A DNA stretch of 64,000 nucleotides, taken from assembly GCA_030390025.1 (NCBI GenBank), contig CM059431.1, forward strand, positions 110,672,001 to 110,736,000, written 5' to 3'. Positions within the stretch are counted from its first letter, which is position 1, and every line of letters starts with the position of its first letter. Under the pieces are notes generated by a model that saw nothing but the letters and a program-made list of their open reading frames with translations, was not told where the DNA came from and did not search any database. Below are positions 1,155 through 62,851 of this stretch, piece by piece. The stretch comes from Squalus acanthias (Eukaryota). The translations under genes were made by a program, and so were the position numbers.

Positions 1155-1817
1155 ACATCTCCAAACTTCTTAACCAACAAGAACTTCTGTTCACATATTA
1201 TACATAACAATTAGTATACTTCACTTGCACACTAATATTTTAAAAATGTATGCCGGTCTATTTTTCCAAAAGCTGTGGAATTTTTGAGTCAGCTAGTTGC
1301 TTAGAAAACTATATGGTGGTTGAAAGCAGAATGAGGGATTCTTGAATCATCACATACTTACCATTCAACAACACCAATGATGTTTGACATTTGAATGTAG
1401 TGATACTGAATCTGTAGGAAGCTAAATGATGCTCAAAAGAGGTCAACATATGCCTCCAATATGGAAAAATATTTCGATAAAAGCGAGGAGTCAGTCACCA
1501 GTTACCCAGCAATGTGTTAGGCCGAATTCTTGACCATTTGACCAAAGGAGAGTTTCAGTACTCAATGACTCGAGTTTTGTAGGAAGGCAGACTCAGGAAC
1601 ACCCGTCTCCATAAAGTCATTAGACTTGAATAGGGAGTATTGTAGTAACTCGATGCCAAATTCAGCCGGCTCTGTAAAACCACCAGCCCACCTTAGTCTG
1701 TGCATGGAATCCTGCAGTCAGACTGAATGGAGAGCTTGCTTCATAATACCTGTGACATACATTTGCTATCCCCTGGAGTGGGCAGGGATTTTGTTGGCAG
1801 GAAGAGCCCACTCCTTA

Positions 1818-3167
1818 CCCTTATTTAAAAAGGGCAGTAGACAGAAGGCTGGTAACTATAGACCGGTTAGCCTAACATCTGTGGTAGGTAAAATTTTGGA
1901 GTCCATTATTAAGGAAACAGTAACAGGACATTTGGATAATCATAATTTAATAGGACAAAGTCAGCATGGTTTTACGAAGGGGAAGTCATGTTTGACAAAT
2001 TTGCTGGAGTTCTTTGAGGAAGTAACATATAGAGTGGATAAAGGGGAACCAGTGGACGTAGTGTATTTAGACTTCCAAAAGGCATTTGACAAGGTGCCAC
2101 ACAAAAGATTATTGCTTAAGGTAAAAAATCACGGGATTGGGGGTAATATTCTGGCATGGATAGAGGATTGGCTATCTAACAGAAAGCAAAGAGTTGGGAT
2201 AAATGGTTCATTCTCAGACTGGCAATCAGTAACTAGTGGTGTTCCACAGGGGTCAGTGCTGGGTCCCCAACTCTTCACAATCTATATTAACGATTTGGAG
2301 GAAGGGACCAAGTGTAACATATCAAAATTTGCAGATGATACAAAGATGGGAGGGAAAGTAGTGAGTGAGGAGGACATAAAAAACCTGCAAGGGGACATAG
2401 ACAGGCTAAGTAAGTGGGCAGAGATTTGGCAGATGGAATACAACACTGGAAAGTGTGAGGTGATGCACTTTGGCAGGAAAAATCCTAGAGCAATTTATTA
2501 TCTTAATGGCAAGAAACTGGAGAGTACTGAAGTGCAAAGGGATCTGGGGGTCCTGGTGCACGAAACTCAAAAGGTTAGTATGCAGGTGCAGCAAGTGATT
2601 AAGAAGGCAAATGGAATGTTGGCTTTCATTGCTAGGGGGATAGAATATAAAAATAGGGAGGTATTGCTTCAGTTGTACAAGGTATTGGTGAGACCGCACC
2701 TGGAATACTGCATACAGTTTTGGTGTCCTTACTTAAGGAAAGACATCCTTGCTCTCGAGGCAGTGCAAAAAAGGTTCACTCGGTTAATCCCGGGGATGAG
2801 GGGGTGGTCATATGAGGAGAGGTTGGGTAGATTGGGACTCTACTCATTGGAGTTCAGAAGAATGAGAGGCGATCTTATTGAAACATATAAGATTGTGAAG
2901 GGGTTGGATCGGGTGGATGCGGGGAGGATGTTCCCGATGACGGGTGAGACGAGAACTAGGGGACATAGTCTTAGAATAAGGGGCTGCTCTTTCAAAACTG
3001 AGATGAGGAGGAACTACTTCACTCAGAGGGTGGTAGGTCCATGGAATATGCTGCCACAAAAAGCTGTAGAAGCTACAACATTAATTAAATTTAAAACAGA
3101 AATAGACAGTTTCCTAGAAGTAAAGGGCATTAAGGGTTACGGGGAGCGGGCAGGAATTTGGACATGA
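1818..3167 (+). CDS. CR1 ORF2 reverse transcriptase and C-terminal region, 5'-truncated, no native start codon
   Basis: Motifs PLFKKG..GNYRPVSLTS, QHGF..GKSCLTNL, YLDFQKAFDKVPH, GVPQGSVLGP, KFADDTK and RDLGV; no stops up to TGA at 3165-3167. Confidence 0.9.
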   Translation, partial: PLFKKGSRQKAGNYRPVSLTSVVGKILESIIKETVTGHLDNHNLIGQSQHGFTKGKSCLTNLLEFFEEVTYRVDKGEPVDVVYLDFQKAFDKVPHKRLLLKVKNHGIGGNILAWIEDWLSNRKQRVGINGSFSDWQSVTSGVPQGSVLGPQLFTIYINDLEEGTKCNISKFADDTKMGGKVVSEEDIKNLQGDIDRLSKWAEIWQMEYNTGKCEVMHFGRKNPRAIYYLNGKKLESTEVQRDLGVLVHETQKVSMQVQQVIKKANGMLAFIARGIEYKNREVLLQLYKVLVRPHLEYCIQFWCPYLRKDILALEAVQKRFTRLIPGMRGWSYEERLGRLGLYSLEFRRMRGDLIETYKIVKGLDRVDAGRMFPMTGETRTRGHSLRIRGCSFKTEMRRNYFTQRVVGPWNMLPQKAVEATTLIKFKTEIDSFLEVKGIKGYGERAGIWT

Positions 3168-18200: not shown

Positions 18201-18762
18201 TTGTTTTTTTTTTAAACGGGAATGTACAGAAACCCCGGGGGTGGGGGAGATTCTCGGCCCGTTCCCGCCCGGTTTGAGCTCAGAAACGGATTCCAGGAGC
18301 CGGTTGAACGGAGGCGACGATGGTGGCCCCGCCTTCCCACAATGCAGCGCGGCGGAGAAAAGGCCCCATCGATAGCTCGGACCGCACTGCACTCTGGGGG
18401 ATTGAGTCACCTGACCCCGTGTTTCTGCCAATAGTGACTGGCCGGAGAGCGGAACCTTTAAAATGCTCGGGAGAAGCCGAGGGCGCAGCGAGAGCTGGTG
18501 GGTGAGTGGATTTACTTTACCTCAGATTAGTATGGTGCATGGTGTGTTTTTTTTAACTGAATAAGGCAAGCTCTAAATTCTCCCACTGGGAAGAGGCTTC
18601 AGAATCCTTCTGAGACAGAGTGGGCTCGATTTTGCCAGTGTGGGCGGGCTGGGGCGTGTTAGGTGGCATTTGTGTCAGGACCTCGGCTCCGAAGTGAAGT
18701 GGGGAAAAAGTGCGATTTTCCCCTAATTGGGCAATTGATTTCCTGCGTGTGGGAACCCCTGG

Positions 18763-18827
18763 CCCAATGAGTCATTTCACACAGAAAGTCACCTCCGATG
18801 ACGTCATCAATGCTGCTGGATTTAAAG
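18763..18827 (+). promoter_or_regulatory. Putative promoter of the Myb-like gene
   Basis: CCAAT, AP-1 TGAGTCA (18768-18774), CRE TGACGTCA (18799-18806) and TTTAAA about 80 bp before the ORF; motif evidence only. Confidence 0.4.
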
Positions 18828-18901
18828 CCTGCAAGCAGCCTTGCTTCTTCTGGAGACTACAAAGTTTATGCTGATTGTAATAAGGACTTCATTGATCGAC
18901 T

Positions 18902-19141
18902 GTGTCCACCAGCAGGCCAAAGTGTGCTCCACGCTTCGATGAGCCCTCCCTCCAAGCTCTGGTGGAGGGAGCAAGATCGAATAAGGAGGTGCTCTTCCCT
19001 TCCTCAGGGAGAAAAAAGCCACCCCAGCAGACTAAAGCGGTGTGGATGCAAGTGGCCCAGGAGGTCAACTCCATATCGATGAGCCGCAGAACCTGGCTGC
19101 AATGCAGGAAGAGGTTTCATGACCTTCTCCGCACAGGAAAA
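18902..19141 (+). CDS. Harbinger Myb/SANT-like (trihelix) DNA-binding protein, exon 1; starts at GTG
   Basis: APRF..L..LVE...KEVLF....W.QVA.EVN...RTW.QCRKRF.DL pattern; donor AAA|GTGAGT, phase 0. Confidence 0.8.
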
Positions 19142-19463
19142 GTGAGTGTGACTTTCCCATCTCCCTCAATCTGATCCCCATCGCCTCTCCTCACCAGCAC
19201 TCTGCTTTGCCAACCTCTTCCTCCACATCCCACTTGACACTTACATCCCTGCACCCTTACCCATTCCCTTTCTCTGTATGGTCACATTCACTTAACTATT
19301 CGACCATGTAGCCCTCACACTCCCTATTACTGTGATGCAACAACAACAACAACTTACAACACACAGGGAGGGCTCTTTGTGTCCTTCTAAGCATCTATGC
19401 TATGCATTCTCTACACTCACTCCTTCATTCTCACTCAAACTCCACTTGTGTCCCTCATTGCAG

Positions 19464-19623
19464 GAAAAGAGAGCCCACAATAAGAGGGAAAGAGCCATGA
19501 CAGGAGGAGGGCCACCCTCAGTAGCCCAGCTCACCGCCTGGGAGGAGGCGGCCCTGGAAATCGCCGGGATCGAGGACAATTCCCAAGTGGGGGATGGGCA
19601 GACGGGCGCATCACAGCAAGCTG
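19464..19623 (+). CDS. Harbinger Myb/SANT-like protein, exon 2
   Basis: Acceptor ccctcattgcag; EKRAHNKRERAMTGGGPP...LTAWEEAALEI, with the TGGG motif typical after this domain; donor G|GTGACA, phase 1. Confidence 0.8.
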
Positions 19624-19799
19624 GTGACAGAATAGTTTGGCATCTCTCTCATTGACATTGCATGAGTCACTGATAATGATTCTGAGTCACTGATAATGAT
19701 TTTAATGCTCTAACAGATTGACTTATAATCACCTGCACTATTCAATGTGCATGTAACCTTGACCTCACATCTCTAACTCTTTCCTTTACTCCCCCACAG

Positions 19800-20815
19800 G
19801 ACCATCGAAAGCCCCCATTCCCACTGTCCAGGAGGAAGAGCCTGAGCTTCCAGACTCCTCAGAGGAAGCTGCAACCTCTGAGGGCGCAGCGTCAGCAGAA
19901 TTCAGCGCACCCAGCACCAGCACAGACACTCACACCTCGGTGGGACCTTCGCGAGATAGAGTAGTGTTAGCACCTGGTGTATCACAGCTCACAAGTGAGC
20001 ATCAGCAGATGGCAGAGACAGGGACAGCAGTGGAGAGTCCTCATCGGAGGGCGCAGGATTCTGCCCGCTCGACTCCGCTGCATGTTGACCCTGTGCCTCC
20101 GGGTCCATCCAGAAGGGGAGCGGTGCTGGTACTCCAGGAACAGGTGCAGGAGTCTCTGGCAGTTTTTGTCTCCAGGGTCGCTGCGAGTGTGGAGCGAATG
20201 GAGGAGTCCATCGCGAACATGAGCAGAGCCTTTGTGGAGGCATTGGCACATGAACGCATCACTGCGGAAAGGATGGCAACCTCCGTGGAAAGGATGGCTA
20301 CCTCTGTGGTAAGGCTGGCTACTGTAGAGGAGAGGATGGCTATAGTAGAGGAGAGGATGGTTACGGCCATGGAGGAGCTTAGTCACCAGGGTCTTGAAAA
20401 CATGGTCATTGTTCAGAATAGACTGACATCTCTTGAGGAGCAATGGTCAGCTATTGAGCAGCGAAACCAGAACTTCATGGAAGTCCTCTGGAGTAGGACT
20501 TCCAGTGCAGAAACGGGTCCTCATGGCCCCCCTGAAGTGCAGCAAGGTGCTGTCAAGCCACTTGCTAGCTCTGAAGTGGGGCTGACCCATGAGAGGGATT
20601 TTGGTGGCAGACAACAAGGAAGTGGGGGCTCCTCTCCATGCGCTCGCACGACCATGCCACTGCAAAGCCCTCGATCAGAGCCCCACCAGAGTCCTCACCC
20701 AACTGAGATGGGTGTCTCAGCCCCTGCACAGCCGCAGGAGCAGCAGACTGTTGCCGAGCCCTCACAGGTTCGCAACCCCAGAGGACACCCGCCAAAGGCA
20801 TTGAGACAGGAGTAG
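19800..20815 (+). CDS. Harbinger Myb/SANT-like protein, exon 3 (low-complexity and coiled-coil); probable ancestral stop at 20906-20908
   Basis: Acceptor ctttactcccccacag; phase-compatible with exon 2; spliced total 1416 nt = 471 aa plus stop. Confidence 0.75.
20258..20380 (+). repeat. 21-bp coding minisatellite (heptad repeat)
   Basis: ITAERMA TSVERMA TSVVRLA TVEERMA IVEERMV TAMEELS. Confidence 0.8.
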
Positions 20816-21164
20816 CAAGAAAGTGAGCAAGGGGCCTCCACATCTACTGAAGCCACAGGGGAAGCACCACGTAGGAGCACGCGCAAGAGGAAGATAAAGC
20901 ACAAGTAGTCACAAGGGTAGTCACTTGGGTGCTGTGATGTATTGTATTTGGACCAGCCATCCTTGTCATGGTATCAAACAGATTTGATGGCAAACTGTTG
21001 AAGTTGTGGCCTGTGTCATTTTGCAAATGGGACTTTCACATTGAGGGCTTAGGGCGACTTGCAATTGTCAGTATGGTGGTCAGAGTGATAGGAATCCGCA
21101 GGTTTTTGTCCATTGTCGATGCTCTGGTAAGAAGATGCGAGACAAAAGTGTTTGATTGTGCAGG

Positions 21165-21373
21165 CTAAGCAAATCTGGCCAACATGAGTATATCCCTTGC
21201 ATCCCGGGTAGCAATGTGGTCGCGCGCTGGCGCCTTCTGGCCTGTGCAGCTTCAGGTGGGTGAGCAGCAGCTTGGCGCTCCTGTTGATGCTCCTGCTGTT
21301 GGTGCTGCTGTTGCCGTGGCTGGTCTTCGTCCGAATCTGATGTCCAGGAGGAAAGGAAATAAATGGTTCCCAT
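21165..21373 (-). pseudogene. Harbinger transposase remnant: N-terminus joined out of frame to the C-terminal tip, catalytic core absent
   Basis: MGTIYFLSSWTSDSDEDQPRQQQ...AAQARRR, then in another frame DHIATRDARDILMLARFA*; expected position and orientation; assignment from remembered HARBI1-like termini. Confidence 0.6.
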
Positions 21374-23099
21374 GCTTCTGCTATATACCTCAGTTGAGGA
21401 AGCGCTCAGTCAAGGTAGGGAGAGGGGTTTCCCAGGAGGTCACACTGGAGATGGGTCTCAGGCTCCAAACTTCCACAACAATGAGTAGACCTGCTAAAAG
21501 ATCCCCCAGACCTGAGACAACAAAGTTCTGCCACCTGCAAATGATGATTGCTGAAAACTCCTTTTTAATGCAGCTGTTAGTAAGCAATCCACTTGTGAGG
21601 CCGCCAGGATTAACTGGCGTGTTCCAGAGGAGGCGTGCAGGACGTGGGAAATGTCTAAAAATCAGAAAGGCCTCTCAAAATGGGATTATAGAGGCAATTA
21701 AGTGGTTGTTAAGGGCCTTAAGGACCTATCCCTCCTCTTGGAGGCGGGATGGAAACGGGGTCTGAAACCTCGATTCTGGGAAAATTGCTCGGAGGCGGGA
21801 TGGAGGCGGGATCGGGCCCGCACGCCATTTTTTGCGATTTTAGCACCTCACACGCCTCCAAACCCGCCTCCTGGCTGCCTGGCAAAAATCGAGCCCAGGG
21901 TGTTTCACACCTTATATGGAAAATCTCAGTCTGTTTGGAACAGATTTATAATTGAAAAATTATAAGTTAGTGTATTTGGGGACGAGTATAGATGGTACAG
22001 CACTATTACCAGAAACACACGCAAGATTCGAGATTTGGTGTACAGTGAAAATGGCGTTGTCTCTATGCGTATTCCACTGGCAGAAGCAACTAAGTGGTCA
22101 CGTCGGTTTACTTGAAATGCGTCCTGGCTACTTTGCTGTGCTCCCACCCAGTGCGTCCCCGGATTCGGTTTAGAAAATAGTGTCACCCTAATATATCTAA
22201 ATAATCACAATATGGCTATTCTACTCGAGTAGAGAATATTTTAACCGACTTTACTGTTCAAAACACAGGATAACATTGCTTTCAATTTATTGGTGATAAA
22301 ATAGAACGTAATCCACCTATTAAATAACGTATTTCCTTTTGACAACATTGTGCATAGTTGCCAAACAAAACCTTTTTTCTTTTTTGTTAAATATTTGAAA
22401 AAATTCACACCATGAAGTCCTTAGAACACAGGACTGTTTCCTAAATAAGACTTGATAATCATTAATATTTATCTTTACTTCTAACACTAACCTTCTTGTT
22501 CTGATCAAAGTGAGGGACATCAGTGTTGGGGAATATAACGCTTTTCTACATGGTTTCCAAGGTCGAGGAATAGCTTTATATGGTGTAACTCTCCCTCTGC
22601 CCTGCCCCCATAAGTTCTTTATCCTTTTAAAAAAAATCATAGTACTGTATATAGGTAACATTTAAGCAAAACAATTGAGGGTCAGGATTTCAATAAAGTG
22701 GTGATACGACACCAGGAGTGAACATCCCTGAAGTATTAAATGAAGCTCTGCTTCAAAAAAGGACAATTCACAGTATGTGGAATAGGAACAACGCGTACAA
22801 CATAAGGCTTCCCAAAGGTTACCCATCCAAAACAGCAATTAACTACAAATCTGCCATTATATTTTTAACAATTTAATTTCTGAAGAGTATATTATACATT
22901 GTTGGCTTGAAGAAATTTTAGCATGTTAGGCTTTTTTAAAAATATACTTAAATTGGCATTCTAGGTGGTGGAATCATTAATATTGCGATTCTACTGTTAA
23001 TGGCTTATCAGTTATAATCAGCTGATCTCCTTTGGTGATGTTCAGACATTTTTTTTAAATTGTCTTTCTCCCTGTATATACCTCTCTACTTTTCTCCCA

Positions 23100-35709: not shown

Positions 35710-37465
35710 GGGCTGGATTTTTCCAAGCTCGGCGGGTCCGGGGCGGGCGACGTCCGTGGCGTGTGGGGACCCCGCATCTGTCTCGATCCTGGCCTCCAAC
35801 AAGATTTTCTGTTGATGGGGCTTGTTAAGCCCGCCCTGCGAGGTTACCGGCCAGTTAATAGGAAGTGGGTCTGATGACATCATTTGACATCAGCCGGTTT
35901 CCTTAAAGGGACCATGTCCACATTCATTTTGACAGTTGTGCTGTCAGTGTTCTGCAGCATTGAGGTGCTGCAAACACTGACAAACACTGCACCAAGATTC
36001 ACGGCTGCACCCAGGCTCTCGCATTACTCCCTCTATATGCTTATGGAGGGAGTCACAGCACGCAGGGAGGTTCTCTTCCCTTCCCATGGGCGGAAGAGAC
36101 CTCCCCAGGAGACCAACGCACATTGCAGAGGAGGACACAAGCAGGGATGTTGTCAGGAGGACCAGGCTGCAATGACGCAAACCTTTCAATTATCTCAGTA
36201 GATCATGAAATGTTACTGCAAAGCCACACTCAACCTTATCCTCCTGTGCCACTCATCATATCCCCATCACTCTGCCTTCCCTACCCTACTCCTGCGCATC
36301 CTTACTCACACCAACTTACCTTGCACCTCCACCCATCCCTCTCTATCTACATTATCACTTTCCCATCTCACTAGCCACCTCTCACACTCATCCTTGGCCA
36401 ATCATTCAAACTAACAACACACAAGGGTAGGCACTTGTATACTTTAGCCGATGTTCGTGTAAAGTTTCTGTTAATGTGTTGTCAAGCTTTGAAATCTTTA
36501 TTTTTGACACTTTGCCTTCTTGGACAGATTTGTGTGTACCTTTGGAAGTGTCTTAGTGAGTTCAGGTGAATGGTGAGACATAACATTCTCCCTGCCCCCC
36601 ACAATGGTGATGAGTGTGAAAGGAATGGCTTGGACATTGTAGGGATGCTTTATGGTGCTGGTGTGGGTGGTGCCAACCTGGTGCATCATGTGGCAGCCAG
36701 GGTGTACAGTGTTAAGTGAAGTCAATCTGGACATGGTGAGGCCATTGTTGGCATTCCAGGCAGCAATGTGCATGGGTGTTGATGCCCTGTGTCCTGTGCA
36801 GCATCAGTTGATTGCGGAGAAGGTTGTTGTGGATGTTGGTGCTGCTGGTGTTGGGGCTAGATCGTGTTGGGATTCTGAGGACCAAGGTGAGATGTTTTCA
36901 AGGGCACCGATGCTGATGGAATAGATGGCAGGTGAGGTTGAGATGACAGAAGCAATCTGTCAATGGTGAGATAGGTTGTTCCACATGAGGTGACACTGGA
37001 TAGAGAGTTTGCTCCAAACATTTGCAAGCTGCATAAAGCTCAATCTGTCTTCCAGATGCAGTAAGCAACAGCTTCTAACCTTGGAAAGTGAAGAGCTATG
37101 AACTGGGAGCTTTCACAGAAGATTTGCAGCTGCCAGGTTAGTAAATAAATCATTCCATTCTGACACAACAACTGACATACTTACCTGATGTGATACCCGC
37201 TCTCCGGAAACCTCGTTAAAAACCTGGTAAAATAGTAAGTACGTGGGAAAATGGTGCTTAACTACCTTTTAACAAGCTTTTAAGTATCTAAATTGGTTGA
37301 CCCGCCGCTTGGTGCTGGGCCTGTTCAGGGATGACAGACCCGACACTTGGGAAACTGACAAGGAGGCGGGTTTACAGCAGGATACCGACCCGCTGTCAAG
37401 CTTTGTGATTTGGACAGCGTACCCGGCTCCAAACCCGCACTCTGAGCGCCGGCAAAATTCCGGCC
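35710..37465 (+). mobile_element. Decayed Harbinger-type element with Myb exon-1 remnant and transposase remnant
   Basis: TIRs GGGCTGGATTTTTCC / GGCAAAATTCCGGCC; AAG on both sides; AAPRLSHYSLYMLMEGVTARREVLFPSHGRKRPPQET matches exon 1 at 18902. Confidence 0.8.
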
Positions 37466-41529: not shown

Positions 41530-42348
41530 CTGGATGACGTTCAGGCTTGAGCTGATAAGTGGCAAGTAACATTCGCGCCATACAAGTGCCAGGCAATGAC
41601 TATCTCCAACAAGCGAGAGTCTAACCACCGCCCCTTGGCATTCAACAGCATTACCATCGCCGAATCCCCCACCATCAACATCCTGGGGGTCACCATTGAC
41701 CAGAAACTTAACTGGACCAGCCACATATTACTGTGGCTACAAGAGCAGGTTAGAGGCTGGGTATTCTGCAGCGAGCGTCTCACCTCCTGACTCCCCAAAG
41801 ACTTTCCACCATCTACAAGGCACAAGTAAGGAGTGTGATGGAATACTCTCCACTTGCCTGGATGAGGCAGCACCAACAACACTCAAGAAGCTCGACACCA
41901 TCCAAGACAAAGCAGCCCGCTTGATTGGCACCCCATCTCCCAACTTAACCATTCACTCCCTCCACCACCGGCGTACCGTGGCTGCAGTGTGTACCATCTA
42001 CAAGATGCACTGCAGCAACTCGCCAAGGCTTCTTCGGCAGCACCTCCCAAACCCGCGACCTCTTCCACCTAGAAGGACAAGGGCATCAGGCGCATGGGAG
42101 CACCACCACCTCCAAGTTTCCCTCCAAGTCACACACAATCCTGACTTGGAATTTTATCGCCATTCCTTCATCATCGCTGGGTGAAAATCCTGGAACTCCC
42201 TCCCTAACAGCACTGTGGGAGTACCTTCACCACACGGACTGCAGCAGTTCAAGAAGGCGGCTCACCACCACCTTCTCAAGGGCAATTAGGGATGGACAAT
42301 AAATGCTGGTCTTGCCAGCGACGCCCACATCCCATAAACAAATTAAAA
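41530..42348 (+). mobile_element. 5'-truncated LINE of a second CR1-group family, inserted in an old family-C SINE
   Basis: ADKWQVTFAP.KCQAMTIS...ILGVTIDQKLNWTSHI...SLHHRRTVAAVCTIYKMH with frameshifts; tail gggcaattagggatggacaataaatgc. Confidence 0.8.
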
Positions 42349-56064: not shown

Positions 56065-56367
56065 TCAAGGAGAAAAGCTTTCCCTGTAACATTAATTGAT
56101 CTATTATAGAAAGAGTACAATCGGAAAAGTAATTAAAAAGGGGAAACGTGCCAAATAATCATAATTAGATAGAATGGGAGTGGAGCATTTAGGACACAGT
56201 TACACTGCAATAACCATTTTGAGACCAGTGCCTGCTTAAAGTGACATGGGGCCAACATTTATCACTTTGTGATCAGGAAAAATAAGGCTCTGAATGATTT
56301 AGTGTTCACAACTCTGGTGGGACATGTTTCTGGAGGTTTCATCACATGACCTCCCACCTCCAACTTT

Positions 56368-59300
56368 AAACCAATGAAGCGGGGGGGGGAGGATTCAGGA
56401 AAGAGTAAATTTAAAAGCAGCAAGAGAAATGTCAAGGCTCCAGAGCAGAGCAGAGTTTTGGGTAAAGATAAGCAGAGTGGGTCAGGAAGGGACTGAGGGA
56501 GTAACAAAGGTAATAGGGCATCAGTGACTAAGGTGACATCAGGGAAAAATAGAAAAAAGTCAAAGCTAAAGGCACCATATCTGAATGTGCAAAGCATTCG
56601 CAACAAAATAGATGAATTAATAGCGGAGATAGAAATTAATAGGTTTGATCTAATAGCCATAATAGAGACGTGGTTGCAAAGTGGCCAAGGTTGGGAACTA
56701 AATATTCCAGGATACTTAACTTTTAGAAGAGATAGGCAAAATGGAAAAGGAGGAGGGGTAGCCCTGATAATAAAGGATGGGAGAAAGACAGTAGAGAGAA
56801 AGGATCTTAGCTCCGAAAATCAAGAAGTAGAATCAGTTTGGGTTGAGCTAAGAAACAGCAAGGGGCAGAAAACATTGGTGGGAGTTGTTTATAGGCCCCC
56901 AAATAATAGTTATAATGTAGGGCAGAGTATAAATCAGGAAATTAGAGGTGCATGGAACAAGGGTAATCATGGGGGACTTTAATCTACATATAGACTGGGC
57001 AAACCAAATTTGCAGTAATAGTGTGGAGGATGAATTCATGGAATGTGTGCAAGATAGTTTTCTAGATCAGTATGTTGAGGAACCAACTAGGGAACAGGCT
57101 ATTTTAGATCTAGTATTGTGCAATGAGAAAGGGTTAATTAATAGCCTTGTAGTAAAGGGGCCCTTAGGGAAGAGTGACCATAATATGATAGAATTTTATA
57201 TTCAGTTTGAAAGTGATTTTGTTAAATCCGAAACTAGGGTTTTAAATCTAAACAAAGCAAACTACGTAGGTATGAGGGGCGAGTTGGCTAAGATAGATTG
57301 GAAAACGACATTAAAAGGTATGATGGTAGATAAGCAATGGCTAGCATTTAAAGAATTAATACATAATTTACAACAAATATACATTCCTTTAAGGCACAAA
57401 AACCCCAGAGGAAAAGTGGTCCAACTGTGGCTAATAAGAGAAGTTAAAGATAGCATTAGATCAAAGGAAGAGGCTTATAATGTTGCCAAAAAGAGCAGTA
57501 AGCCTGAGGATTGAGTGGATTTTAGAATTCAGCAAAGGAGGACCAAGAAATTGATAAAGAAAGGGGAAATAGAATATGAGAGTAAACTCACGAGAGACTG
57601 TAAAAGCTTCTATAGGTATGTAAAAAGGAAAAGATTAGCGAAAGTAAATGTGGGTCCCTTACAGGCTGAGACAGGAGAAATTATAATGGGGAATAAGGAA
57701 ATGGCAGAGAAATTAAATAAATACTTTGGGCTGGATTTTGATACTGGGGACGTGATGTAGGCAGGACTCCCACTTTTTGGGTTGTAGTCCCGCCTCCATC
57801 GACTTGTGGCCAACCCACTGCATTTTCACTTGATTGACCTTGTTGAGCCCGCCCAGCGAGCTCAGCAGGCCAATTAAGGGCCACCCGGCAACAGGTGACG
57901 TCACAGATTGACATTTCATCTGTCAAGAGCTTTTGACAGATGAAATATCAGCGTTTGACAGCTCTGTGAAGCTGTGAAACACTGACAATCTGTCTTCTAA
58001 CTTGAGTCCTTCCTCTCAGGCTGAGTTAGAAATCATTCCATCACAGAAAGCAGAAGGCTGCAGTTTTTGACAGCACCACGGCCATTGTGTTTTCTGTGCC
58101 AGTGAGATTTCTGACTCCCGAGACCTGAAGGGCTGACACCTGCAGGAGGAAGTTAAGGTAAGTAAAACTTTTCCCCACACTTTACACTTACCTTACACAC
58201 TTACCTCTGCACACATGCACTCATCACTCACCTGCCCACCGGACATATCGACCCCTCCAACCCCTGCAGACCCACGGTCCGCCTCGCTAACTTGGCGTGG
58301 TTGGGACCTGTCGGGAAGCCCACATTTCAGCTTTTAAAATAGGGATTAGGCAAAAAACTGCCTGTTAACTACCTGTTAACAGGCAGTTAATTGTCACTAA
58401 TCCCCTTCCCGCCTCAGGGAGGCGGGTCCCAGCACAGGTTGGGCACCCACCTCCAGCGAAACTGACATGGAGCCGGGTTGGGGGCAGGATGGGTTCGGGA
58501 CCCCCGAATCTGCAACTTTAACCCCCCACACGCCTCCAAACCCGCCTCCACGGGTCAATGAAAATCCAGCCCATTGTGTCTGTCTTCACGGAAGAAGACG
58601 CAAAAAAATCTCTCAAAAATAGTGGAGAACCAAGGTAAAAAAATTACTGGAGAAATTAATGGGACTGAAAGCCAATAAATCCCCTGGACCTGATGGCCTA
58701 CATCCTAGGGTTTTGAAAGAGTTGGCTATAGAGATAGTGGATGCATTGGTTGTCATCTTCCAAAATTCCATTGATTCTAGAACAGTTCCCGCAGATTGGA
58801 AGGTAGCAAATGTAACCCCACTATTTAAGAAAGGAGGGAGAGAGAAAACAGGGAACTACAGACCAGTTAGCCTGACATCAGCAGTAGGGAAAATGCTAGA
58901 ATCTATTATTAAGGACGTGGTAACAGGGCACTTAGAAAATAATAATAGGATTGGGCAGAGTCAACACGGATTTATGAAAGGGAAATCATGTTTGACAAAT
59001 CTGTTTTTTGAGGTTGTAACGAGCAGAATAGATAAGGGGGAACCAGTGGATGTGGTGTATTTGGATTTTCAGAAGGCATTCGATAAGGTGCCACACAAGG
59101 GCTCATGGGATTGGGGGTAATATACTAGCATGGATTGAGGATTGGTTAACGGACAGAAAACAGAGAGTAGGAATAAATGGGTCATTTTTGATTTGGCAGG
59201 CTGTAACTAGTGGGGTACCACAAGGATCAGTGCTTGGGCCTCAGCTATTCACAATCTATATCAATGATTTGGATGAGAGGACCAAATGTAATATATCCAA

Positions 59301-60230
59301 GTTTGCTGATGATACAAAGCTAAGTGGGAATGTAAGTTGTGAGGAGGATGCAAAGAGGCTTCAAGGGGATATAGACAGGCTAAGTGAGTGGGCAAGAACA
59401 TGGCAAATGGAATATAATGTGGATAAATGTGAAGTTATCCACTTTGGTAGGAAAAATAGAAAAGCAGAGTATTTTTTAAATGGTGACAGATTGGGAAATG
59501 TTGGTGTTCAGAGGGACCTGGGTGTCCTTGTACACGAATCACTGAAAGTTAACATGCAGGTACAGCAAGCAATTAAGAAAGCAAATGGTACGTTGGCCTT
59601 TATTACAAGAGGATTTGCGTATAAGAGTAAAGATGTCTTACTGCAATTATATAGGGCCCTGGTAAGACCACACCTGGAGTATTGTGTACAGTTTTGATCT
59701 CCTTACCTAACGAAGGATATACTTGCCATAGAGGGAGTGCAACAAAGGTTCACCAGACTGATTCCTGGGATGGGGAGATTGTCCTATGAGGAGAGACTGA
59801 GTAGACTCGGCCTATATTCTCTGGAGTTTAGAAGAATGAGAAGTGATCTCCTTGAAACAAACAAAATTCTTACAGGGCGTGACAGGGTAGATGCAGGGAG
59901 GATGTTTCCCCTGGCTGGGGAGTCTAGAACCAGGGTTTACAGTCTCAAAATAAGGGGTCGGCCATTTAGGACTGAGATGAGGAGAAATTTCTTCACTCAG
60001 AGGGTGATGAATCTTTGGAATTCTCTACCCCAGAGGGCTGTGGAGGCTCAGCCATTGAGTATATTCAAGACAGAGATCGATAGATTTTTGAATATTAAGG
60101 GAATCAAGGGATATGGGGATCGAGCAGGAAAGTGGAGTTGAGGTAGAAGATCAGTCATAATCTTATTGAATGGTGGAGCAGGCTCAAGTGGCCAAATGGC
60201 CTACCCCTGCTCCTATATCTTATGTTCTTA
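56368..60230 (+). mobile_element. Decayed CR1 LINE (ORF2 endonuclease plus RT), interrupted by a MITE
   Basis: YLNVQSIRNKIDEL..ETWL, MGDFN, LGKSDH, FADD motifs; several frameshifts and stops; ttatgttcttat tail. Confidence 0.9.
57728..58572. mobile_element. Harbinger-type MITE inside CR1 ORF2
   Basis: TIR GGGCTGGATTTT / AAAATCCAGCCC; splits KYF|VSVFTEED; flanks TTT/ATT. Confidence 0.85.
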
Positions 60231-61290: not shown

Positions 61291-62123
61291 GGGGTGATTT
61301 TGCCAATGGGGGCGCGATGGAGGTGCGACTGTTGCTTGTCGGGTTTCAGTCCCGACTCCATTGATGTCTGGCCAACCCACGCTATTTTCCCTTGACTGAC
61401 CTTGTTAAGCCTGCCCAGCGGGCTTAGCAGGCCAATTAAGGGAAAGCCGGTGACAGAGAACGTCAGCGTATGACGTTTCATCTGTCAAAAATTTTTGACA
61501 GATGCTTTGTCATCGTTTGACAGCTTTGAGAAGCTGTCAAACACTGACATTCCCTGTTGTTTGGTGAGTTCTTGTACTCAAGACTCACCAACCCTCTTTC
61601 GTGAGCAGAAAGTAGATGGCTGTTGCATCGGAGAATGCAGCAGCCATTCTGTCAGCTCTGCCATTGAGATGCCGGAGCCTCCGGATCCCCAACGATTGAA
61701 GCCTGCAGATAAGAAAATTTTTCTATTACTTTTCACTCACCTCATGTACTTACCTCTCCACACTTGCACCCATCACTCACCTCCACAGCGCACTTTTGGA
61801 CCCCTTTCACCCCCGCAGACCCATTGCTCGCCTCGGTGACCCTAGCGGGGTTTCCCGACGTCGGGAAGCCCGCACTTCTGTTGGAAAAATGGGGATAATC
61901 CTCTTAACTGCCTCTTAACTACCTGTTAACAGGCAGTTAAGTGGCTGTAATCCCCTTCCCGCCTCCAAGGAGATGGGACCTGGCGCGGGTCGGCTACCTG
62001 CTTCCTGGGACGTTGGCACGGAGGCGGGTTGGGGGCGGGTTGGGCACCCGCCCCCAGATTCTGCCATTTTCCCCGCAGTCCCGCCTCCATACCCACCTCC
62101 CCAGGGCTGGCAAGAGCGCGCCC
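61291..62123. mobile_element. Harbinger-type MITE with interior homologous to 57728-58572
   Basis: Degenerate TIRs ggggtgattttgcc / ggcaagagcgcgccc; shared palindromes catctgtcaa..ttgacagatg and ttaactacctgttaacaggcagttaa. Confidence 0.7.
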
Positions 62124-62188: not shown

Positions 62189-62851
62189 GGGCTGGATTTT
62201 CATTGACCCTGTGGAGGTGGGTATTGGAGGCGTGTGGGGGGTTAAAATTGCGAAAACTGGCGGGCGGGCACAAGCCCACCTCCATCACGCCTCCACGCAA
62301 TTTTCATTAAATCGTGTCTGCTAGTCCCGACTCCGTCCCACCTCTAAGAGGCGGGATAGTCTGTTAAGGCCCTTAACAAGCACTAAATTGCCTCTATAAT
62401 GCCATTTTAAAAGGCCTTTGTGATTTTAACCCTTTTTCTACGTGAAGCACGCCTGTTCTGAACCACGAATGTGAAACCTAGCGGGAGCACATTTGGCTGG
62501 CTGGCAAGTATATCTGGGAGTGGTGGTGGATGGGAGACATATCTGGGAGTGGTGGTGCAAAAATATCTGGGAGCAGACTTAGGGCTGCTGCTGCTCATTT
62601 TGCATCCAGGTCCTCTCACAGCAAAGGCCAGGCAGTCTTTGCAGACCTTCAATGCAGCAGCAATGATGACATCATCAGAGGTGACTTTCAGACTGAAAAC
62701 ACTAATTGGTTCATGGGTTCCCACATGCTGGAACTCAATTGCCTAATTAGGTGAAAATCGCATCAATCTCCCACATCCAATTGGAGTCGGGTGGATAACA
62801 CGAAAAGTGGATGACACGACCCCAACCCGCCCCAGTATCAAAATCCAGCCC
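62189..62851 (-). mobile_element. Harbinger-type MITE with perfect TAA TSD
   Basis: TAA-GGGCTGGATTTT...AAAATCCAGCCC-TAA; interior matches both subterminal regions of 18622-21896 in reverse. Confidence 0.9.

Follow-up and report, generated by a model that had tools for sequence, protein, structure and literature searches.

Can a transposon that has lost its catalytic enzyme keep a DNA-binding gene because the element itself uses it? The question is raised by the window studied here, a stretch of 64,000 bp from the 3.7-Gb genome of Squalus acanthias (contig CM059431.1, positions 110,672,001 to 110,736,000), in which the 3,275-bp span at 18622..21896 (+), with a terminal inverted repeat (TIR) at each end, is a Harbinger element that contains a Myb/SANT gene. 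The Myb-like protein of Harbinger transposons binds the element ends and carries the transposase into the nucleus, and the two proteins together mobilize a noncoding element in trans (PMC2836001, PMC9179366). A sequence-only reading of the window had proposed that the element is half-autonomous, supplying its own targeting subunit and borrowing a transposase, or that it is a source of new host Myb/SANT factors. The analysis confirms the element as a non-autonomous, Myb-only Harbinger of an abundant family, a further vertebrate case of a described derivative type. We consider it probable that the window holds a decayed copy of an abundant derivative without DDE core, moved in trans by the transposase of its parent, and that the Myb gene is mostly a passenger.

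The TIRs (18622..18638, +, and 21879..21896, -) pair over 12 perfect bases counted from 18622 and 21896 and over five more beyond a 1-nt indel that is private to the window copy, whose right repeat has one additional T. They are flanked by 3-bp target site duplications (TSDs) with one mismatch, AGT at 18619..18621, which lies within a palindromic target of the type favored by the family, and AGG at 21897..21899. Short TIRs, a 3-bp TSD with an extended target preference and a Myb/SANT partner gene are those of PIF/Harbinger, for which a palindromic target with a 3-bp TSD has been described (PMC2836001). On the opposite strand, 209 bp at 21165..21373 (-) match the roughly 210 bp of transposase-like sequence noticed earlier, and consist of the start and the end of a transposase gene fused out of frame. 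An N-terminal remnant of about 50 codons (21230..21373, -) and a C-terminal remnant of about 19 codons plus the stop, in another frame (21165..21223, -), meet at a deletion junction (21224..21229) where both breakpoints overlap by 6 bp; the 1,018 bp lost there took the DDE core. DDE_Tnp_4, which an autonomous Harbinger contains, gave no match in the nine frames scanned, nor did any other DDE family, and tblastn with an intact transposase from the same genome found none anywhere in the 64-kb window. The claim that the transposase core is gone was thus borne out, and without it the window element cannot be autonomous.

The deleted form is an amplified family. All 40 scored candidates obtained with the whole element as query were 90 to 93% identical, mostly full length and embedded in unrelated flanks. 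A 29-base pattern spanning the junction had 1,552 exact matches genome-wide, and a control pattern none; the former number is a lower bound, since the pattern recovered only 14 of 70 copies picked by similarity, and the true number is higher. Among 115 copies with both ends, the 3-bp flanks were identical in 75 and differed by one mismatch in 29, and the target-site profile over the 75 sites was palindromic and extended. The derivative is therefore multi-copy with different flanks and has retained the Myb gene, in support of this part of the sequence-only reading; a single-copy deleted form, which that reading had named as evidence against itself, is not what the genome contains.

The other such result, relatives with a full transposase, is present in abundance. 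DNA searches from the two sides of the junction, which are blind to the core, yielded 58 non-self loci, a few of them the same element counted twice, and only one (L093) had kept the core; its additional kilobase matched DDE_Tnp_4 with an E value of 1.8e-25. We then used the missing core as query and retrieved all 40 scored matches. Of these core loci, 38 were taken in full; the two omitted had a tandem expansion and no Myb side, respectively. The parent copies are about 4.3 kb long, with ends and Myb gene as in the deleted form plus the 1,018-bp segment, and contain the DDE_Tnp_4 domain that the window element lacks. Among 30 loci matching the missing core, the same right end was present in 30 and the Myb side in 29. 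The intact left breakpoint pattern had 495 exact matches genome-wide, and deleted copies are more numerous than full ones; an estimate scaled to the share of sampled copies that each pattern recovers puts the deleted copies at about 7,800 and the full ones at about 1,400, but the samples are biased, and only the exact counts are firm. Full copies with an uninterrupted transposase open reading frame (ORF) numbered 17 of 37 and 5 of 31, and those with an intact Myb ORF 1 of 28 and 1 of 31 (2 of 59 together).

A first look for DDE_Tnp_4 in this genome gave 63,886 candidates. The best matches to that profile were considered as the parent and rejected, being of a different Harbinger family with hardly any sequence in common with the element. 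At many sites, near-identical open transposase frames of about 385 to 391 aa mark a separate Harbinger family that is apparently young (L031-L060).

The Myb gene of the window copy has three exons, at 18902..19141, 19464..19623 and 19800..20908 (all +; the last given at family length), with a predicted splice pattern derived from GT-AG sites and frame. As proposed, the exons join without frameshift, up to the first stop, to 1,416 nt, that is, 471 aa and a stop; ends, splice borders and frame all agreed with the 3,275-bp, three-exon element first described. Exon 1 encodes the Myb/SANT domain (PF13873 Myb_DNA-bind_5, E value of 1.4e-10, passing the cut-off), and its Atlas neighbors were all Myb/SANT. 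A search for exon 1 homologues in longer proteins (E ≤ 1e-10; 0 of 33 candidates) and a PDB sequence search returned no match, and neither is informative. Exon 3 contains a stretch of 21-nt repeats and probably a coiled coil, to judge from its sequence and weak Pfam matches. In the repeat stretch (20266-20370), copies of the family differ by in-frame units, and long arrays occur in L090 and L154. Both strands of the right subterminal region (21740..21871) carry clustered GGAGGCG(G/T) motifs, which are candidate Myb-binding sites. The description of the gene as near-intact held for the reading frame and the splice sites, but not for its two ends. Its first codon is GTG, immediately after an in-frame stop, where the majority of 30 copies have ATG, and the next in-frame ATG (19046) lies within the Myb domain. 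At the other end, TAG at 20813-20815 comes early, as the family frame runs for 31 more residues, to 20908, with a basic tail. Because GTG replaces the family ATG and the stop is 31 residues premature, the Myb gene of the window copy is probably a pseudogene.

The same deletion occurs in very different elements. We added 40 deleted and 40 full copies out of the pattern lists, selected according to where they lie on contig C1, though two of the deleted copies were picked because of a variant base. The deletion was at a single position in the 70 similarity-picked copies and in 39 of the 40 pattern-picked ones, the 40th lacking everything to the left of the junction. It is carried by at least six haplotypes of ends and Myb gene. 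Subfamily X (L301, L302, L307, L319, L330, L331 and L339-L368) has the same deletion with strongly diverged TIRs, subterminal regions and exon 1. It differs from all others by 14 to 25% in the left end, 11 to 20% in exon 1 and 5 to 11% in intron 1, and from the other deleted groups by 2 to 4% at the junction. The 6-bp overlap of the breakpoints and the disparity of the haplotypes could suggest that the deletion arose repeatedly, at a microhomology hot spot, in separate subfamilies. We regard this as very unlikely, as the base directly left of the junction is G in all six deleted groups and C in all five full groups, and the junction flanks of the deleted groups are nearer to one another than to those of the full groups. 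Among the pattern matches listed, C occupied the junction-adjacent base in 2 of 100.

One deletion on many haplotypes points to recombination, and the simplest account is a single deletion that later moved among subfamilies. We built trees for the Myb region, exon 3 and the right end (166, 175 and 174 of 188 rows, respectively, after exclusion of rows with more than 25% gaps), and deleted and full copies interleaved in all three. The subfamily of the window element, from whose majority sequence this copy differs by about 2 to 3%, is itself a mosaic, with exon 1 nearest to one full group (4.1%) and exon 3 nearest to other full groups (0.7 to 1.2%). Exon 1 of subfamily X has diverged further than the neighboring intron, which argues for import of that exon rather than its evolution in place. 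The Myb region of one full-length clade (L213, L214, L217, L195, L198, L263, L267, L284 and L298) nests among deleted copies, and a full element may thus have taken it from a deleted one.

If the deleted elements used their Myb gene, it should be under selection in them. Among deleted copies, 4 of 61 and 0 of 29 (4 of 90) had an intact Myb ORF, compared with 3.6 and 1.9 expected from the Poisson zero class. In 45 copies of the window subfamily, replacements reached 0.87 and stops 0.88 of the synonymous expectation, showing that deleted copies decay near neutrally after insertion. We also tallied observed clade-marking alleles over codons 9-95; these are not branch estimates, about 3:1 nonsynonymous (N) to synonymous (S) alleles are expected, and power is low. 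Full-only alleles numbered 5N:6S, shared alleles 8N:15S and deleted-only alleles 7N:3S, and the counts from a smaller sample behaved alike. The alleles found in full elements (13N:21S) give clear evidence of purifying selection on the Myb domain, and no significant purifying selection was detected in the deleted-only alleles of that domain. A dN/dS near 1, which the sequence-only reading had named as evidence against itself, was thus seen for individual copies; for shared branches, as for deleted-only alleles in the domain and in the whole ORF, the comparison has low power. A pooled Myb-domain ratio of 0.46 from 30 copies was set aside, as it mixes subfamily variants with decay.

These results suggest the following sequence of events. 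The DDE core would have been lost once, at the 6-bp microhomology, probably during gap repair, and the deletion would then have passed among subfamilies through template switching or conversion. Differences between the Myb domains of deleted subfamilies are mostly synonymous or conservative (16N:28S for X versus the main group); because the deletion spread in that way, this purifying signal would mostly have been gained in autonomous elements. The proteins of the 4.3-kb parent would mobilize the deleted element in trans. Myb protein from the rare intact copies could enter the common pool, but the element would not need its own. Its ends suffice, since 4 of 40 deleted copies (L308, L316, L327 and L334) share a second deletion that removes about 590 bp of exon 3 of the Myb gene together with its stop codon, and since a noncoding relative has a TSD. 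The latter, a 663-bp element resembling a miniature inverted-repeat transposable element at 62189-62851 (-) of the window, is flanked by TAA on both sides, is 75 to 79% similar to the ends of the window element and has TIRs that resemble those of subfamily X. Thus, the interpretation given in the sequence-only reading stood in part: the genome does contain a transposase source whose ends are the same, but retention of the Myb gene for the element's own use is not supported, given the near-neutral decay, the lack of significant purifying selection on deleted-only alleles and the spread of derivatives with a truncated Myb gene or none.

Several observations weigh against this account. The contrast between deleted-only and other alleles is weak (p is 0.15 with one threshold and 0.026 with another). 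Deleted-only alleles of the entire ORF were 31N:14S, a ratio of about 0.7 (p = 0.19), and in one cell, the coiled-coil region at codons 246-365 with a threshold of 4, they were 2N:4S (p = 0.027). None of the six deleted groups has a fixed stop or frameshift, and one or two shared lesions were seen for 3.5 to 4.6 expected (p between 0.05 and 0.33). In pooled alleles of the deleted Myb domain, N was 0.33 of expectation, subfamily variants being mixed in. In the trees, one full clade lies inside deleted ones, and exchange may have run in either direction. Finally, all 30 loci with the right end of X were deleted, so that no transposase-bearing partner with the same ends was found for that subfamily. 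Full subfamilies outside the sample could account for these results. Some of them would also fit a selected, half-autonomous split system, in which a functional Myb protein suited to their own ends is maintained in deleted lineages and helps them to recruit a borrowed transposase. In addition to the absence of fixed lesions, the mostly synonymous differences between subfamilies would fit it, as would the joint change of both TIRs and the Myb domain in subfamily X, for which none of 30 loci was a full-length partner. Moreover, with deleted copies in the majority and the Myb ORF so rarely intact in full ones, the majority of intact Myb ORFs may reside in the deleted form, and the same model has been proposed, as a hypothesis, for Caenorhabditis inopinata (10.64898/2026.05.26.728016). 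We nevertheless find it doubtful, as purifying selection was undetected in deleted-only alleles, exon 1 of X appears to be imported, and truncated or Myb-less derivatives spread too. The Myb protein also acts in trans in published assays (PMC2836001, PMC9179366), which would leave little reason for an advantage in cis. A combined version, a split transposon in which the deletion recombined into subfamilies that each have a selected, end-matched Myb protein, supply most of the targeting subunit and donate haplotypes to full elements, with X having its own specificity, likewise seems unlikely to us.

It is extremely improbable that this locus has become, or is on its way to becoming, a host Myb/SANT gene comparable to NAIF1 or the MSANTD genes. 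Several Harbinger Myb genes have been domesticated in vertebrates (PMC9392472), and the window copy has no frameshift and has retained its splice sites. However, a domesticated gene should be a single-copy, intact and constrained ORF, whereas this one has lost its start, has a premature stop, lies between intact TIRs and has thousands of near-identical relatives and a divergence typical of its subfamily. Such a profile of lesions is common among decaying copies. Nothing at the window copy therefore suggests the host factor that the sequence-only reading had envisaged. NAIF1 and the MSANTD genes similarly have a Myb/SANT domain derived from Harbinger, but are host genes under negative selection (PMC9392472), unlike this multi-copy, TIR-bounded and decaying element.

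The 4.3-kb parent resembles the canonical elements Harbinger3_DR and Ping/Pong in its short TIRs, 3-bp TSD, palindromic target and opposite-strand genes (PMC2836001, PMC9179366), a two-gene arrangement from which the window element departs in having no DDE core. The nearest vertebrate parallel is the solo-ORF form of Harbinger-Snek in Laticauda (10.1101/2021.06.13.448261), in which multi-copy Myb-only deletion variants (452 intact in L. colubrina) likewise stand beside full and short noncoding forms. In contrast with the case described here, transposase-only variants are more numerous there, while here a single deletion is found on many haplotypes and intact Myb ORFs are few. Harbinger-1M_cIno of C. 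inopinata (10.64898/2026.05.26.728016) is also an expanded, TIR-bounded derivative with only the MADF/Myb gene, for which a trans-acting transposase was proposed. The nematode family differs in having an intact, expressed and recently active copy at 14 of 19 MADF loci, beside one intact DDE locus, compared with thousands of older copies, about 4% of them intact, and hundreds of full-length parents here. A literature search, limited to the main text of accessible papers, found no Myb-only Harbinger in sharks. A Myb-only Harbinger of newts, considered as a further precedent, found no support in passages of PMC5741667.

For C. inopinata, selection keeping the Myb-only form was left hypothetical by the authors (10.64898/2026.05.26.728016). 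With thousands of copies and a co-resident parent, the present family offers a test bed for whether selection can keep a noncatalytic transposon gene in the absence of its enzyme. It also shows how raw dN/dS can be misleading when calculated among copies of this kind, since the signal is brought in by recombination with full elements.

The window contains further traces of Harbingers. Right-end fragments of related elements lie at 58469-58572 and 62016-62123. An older, decayed element at about 35990-36900 has stretches resembling Myb exon 1 and the transposase end less than 1 kb apart, and apparently also lacks a DDE core. Elsewhere, frames at 1569-3167, 41600-42184, 56262-57514 and 59032-59697 resemble what we take to be pieces of the reverse transcriptase and endonuclease of long interspersed nuclear elements.

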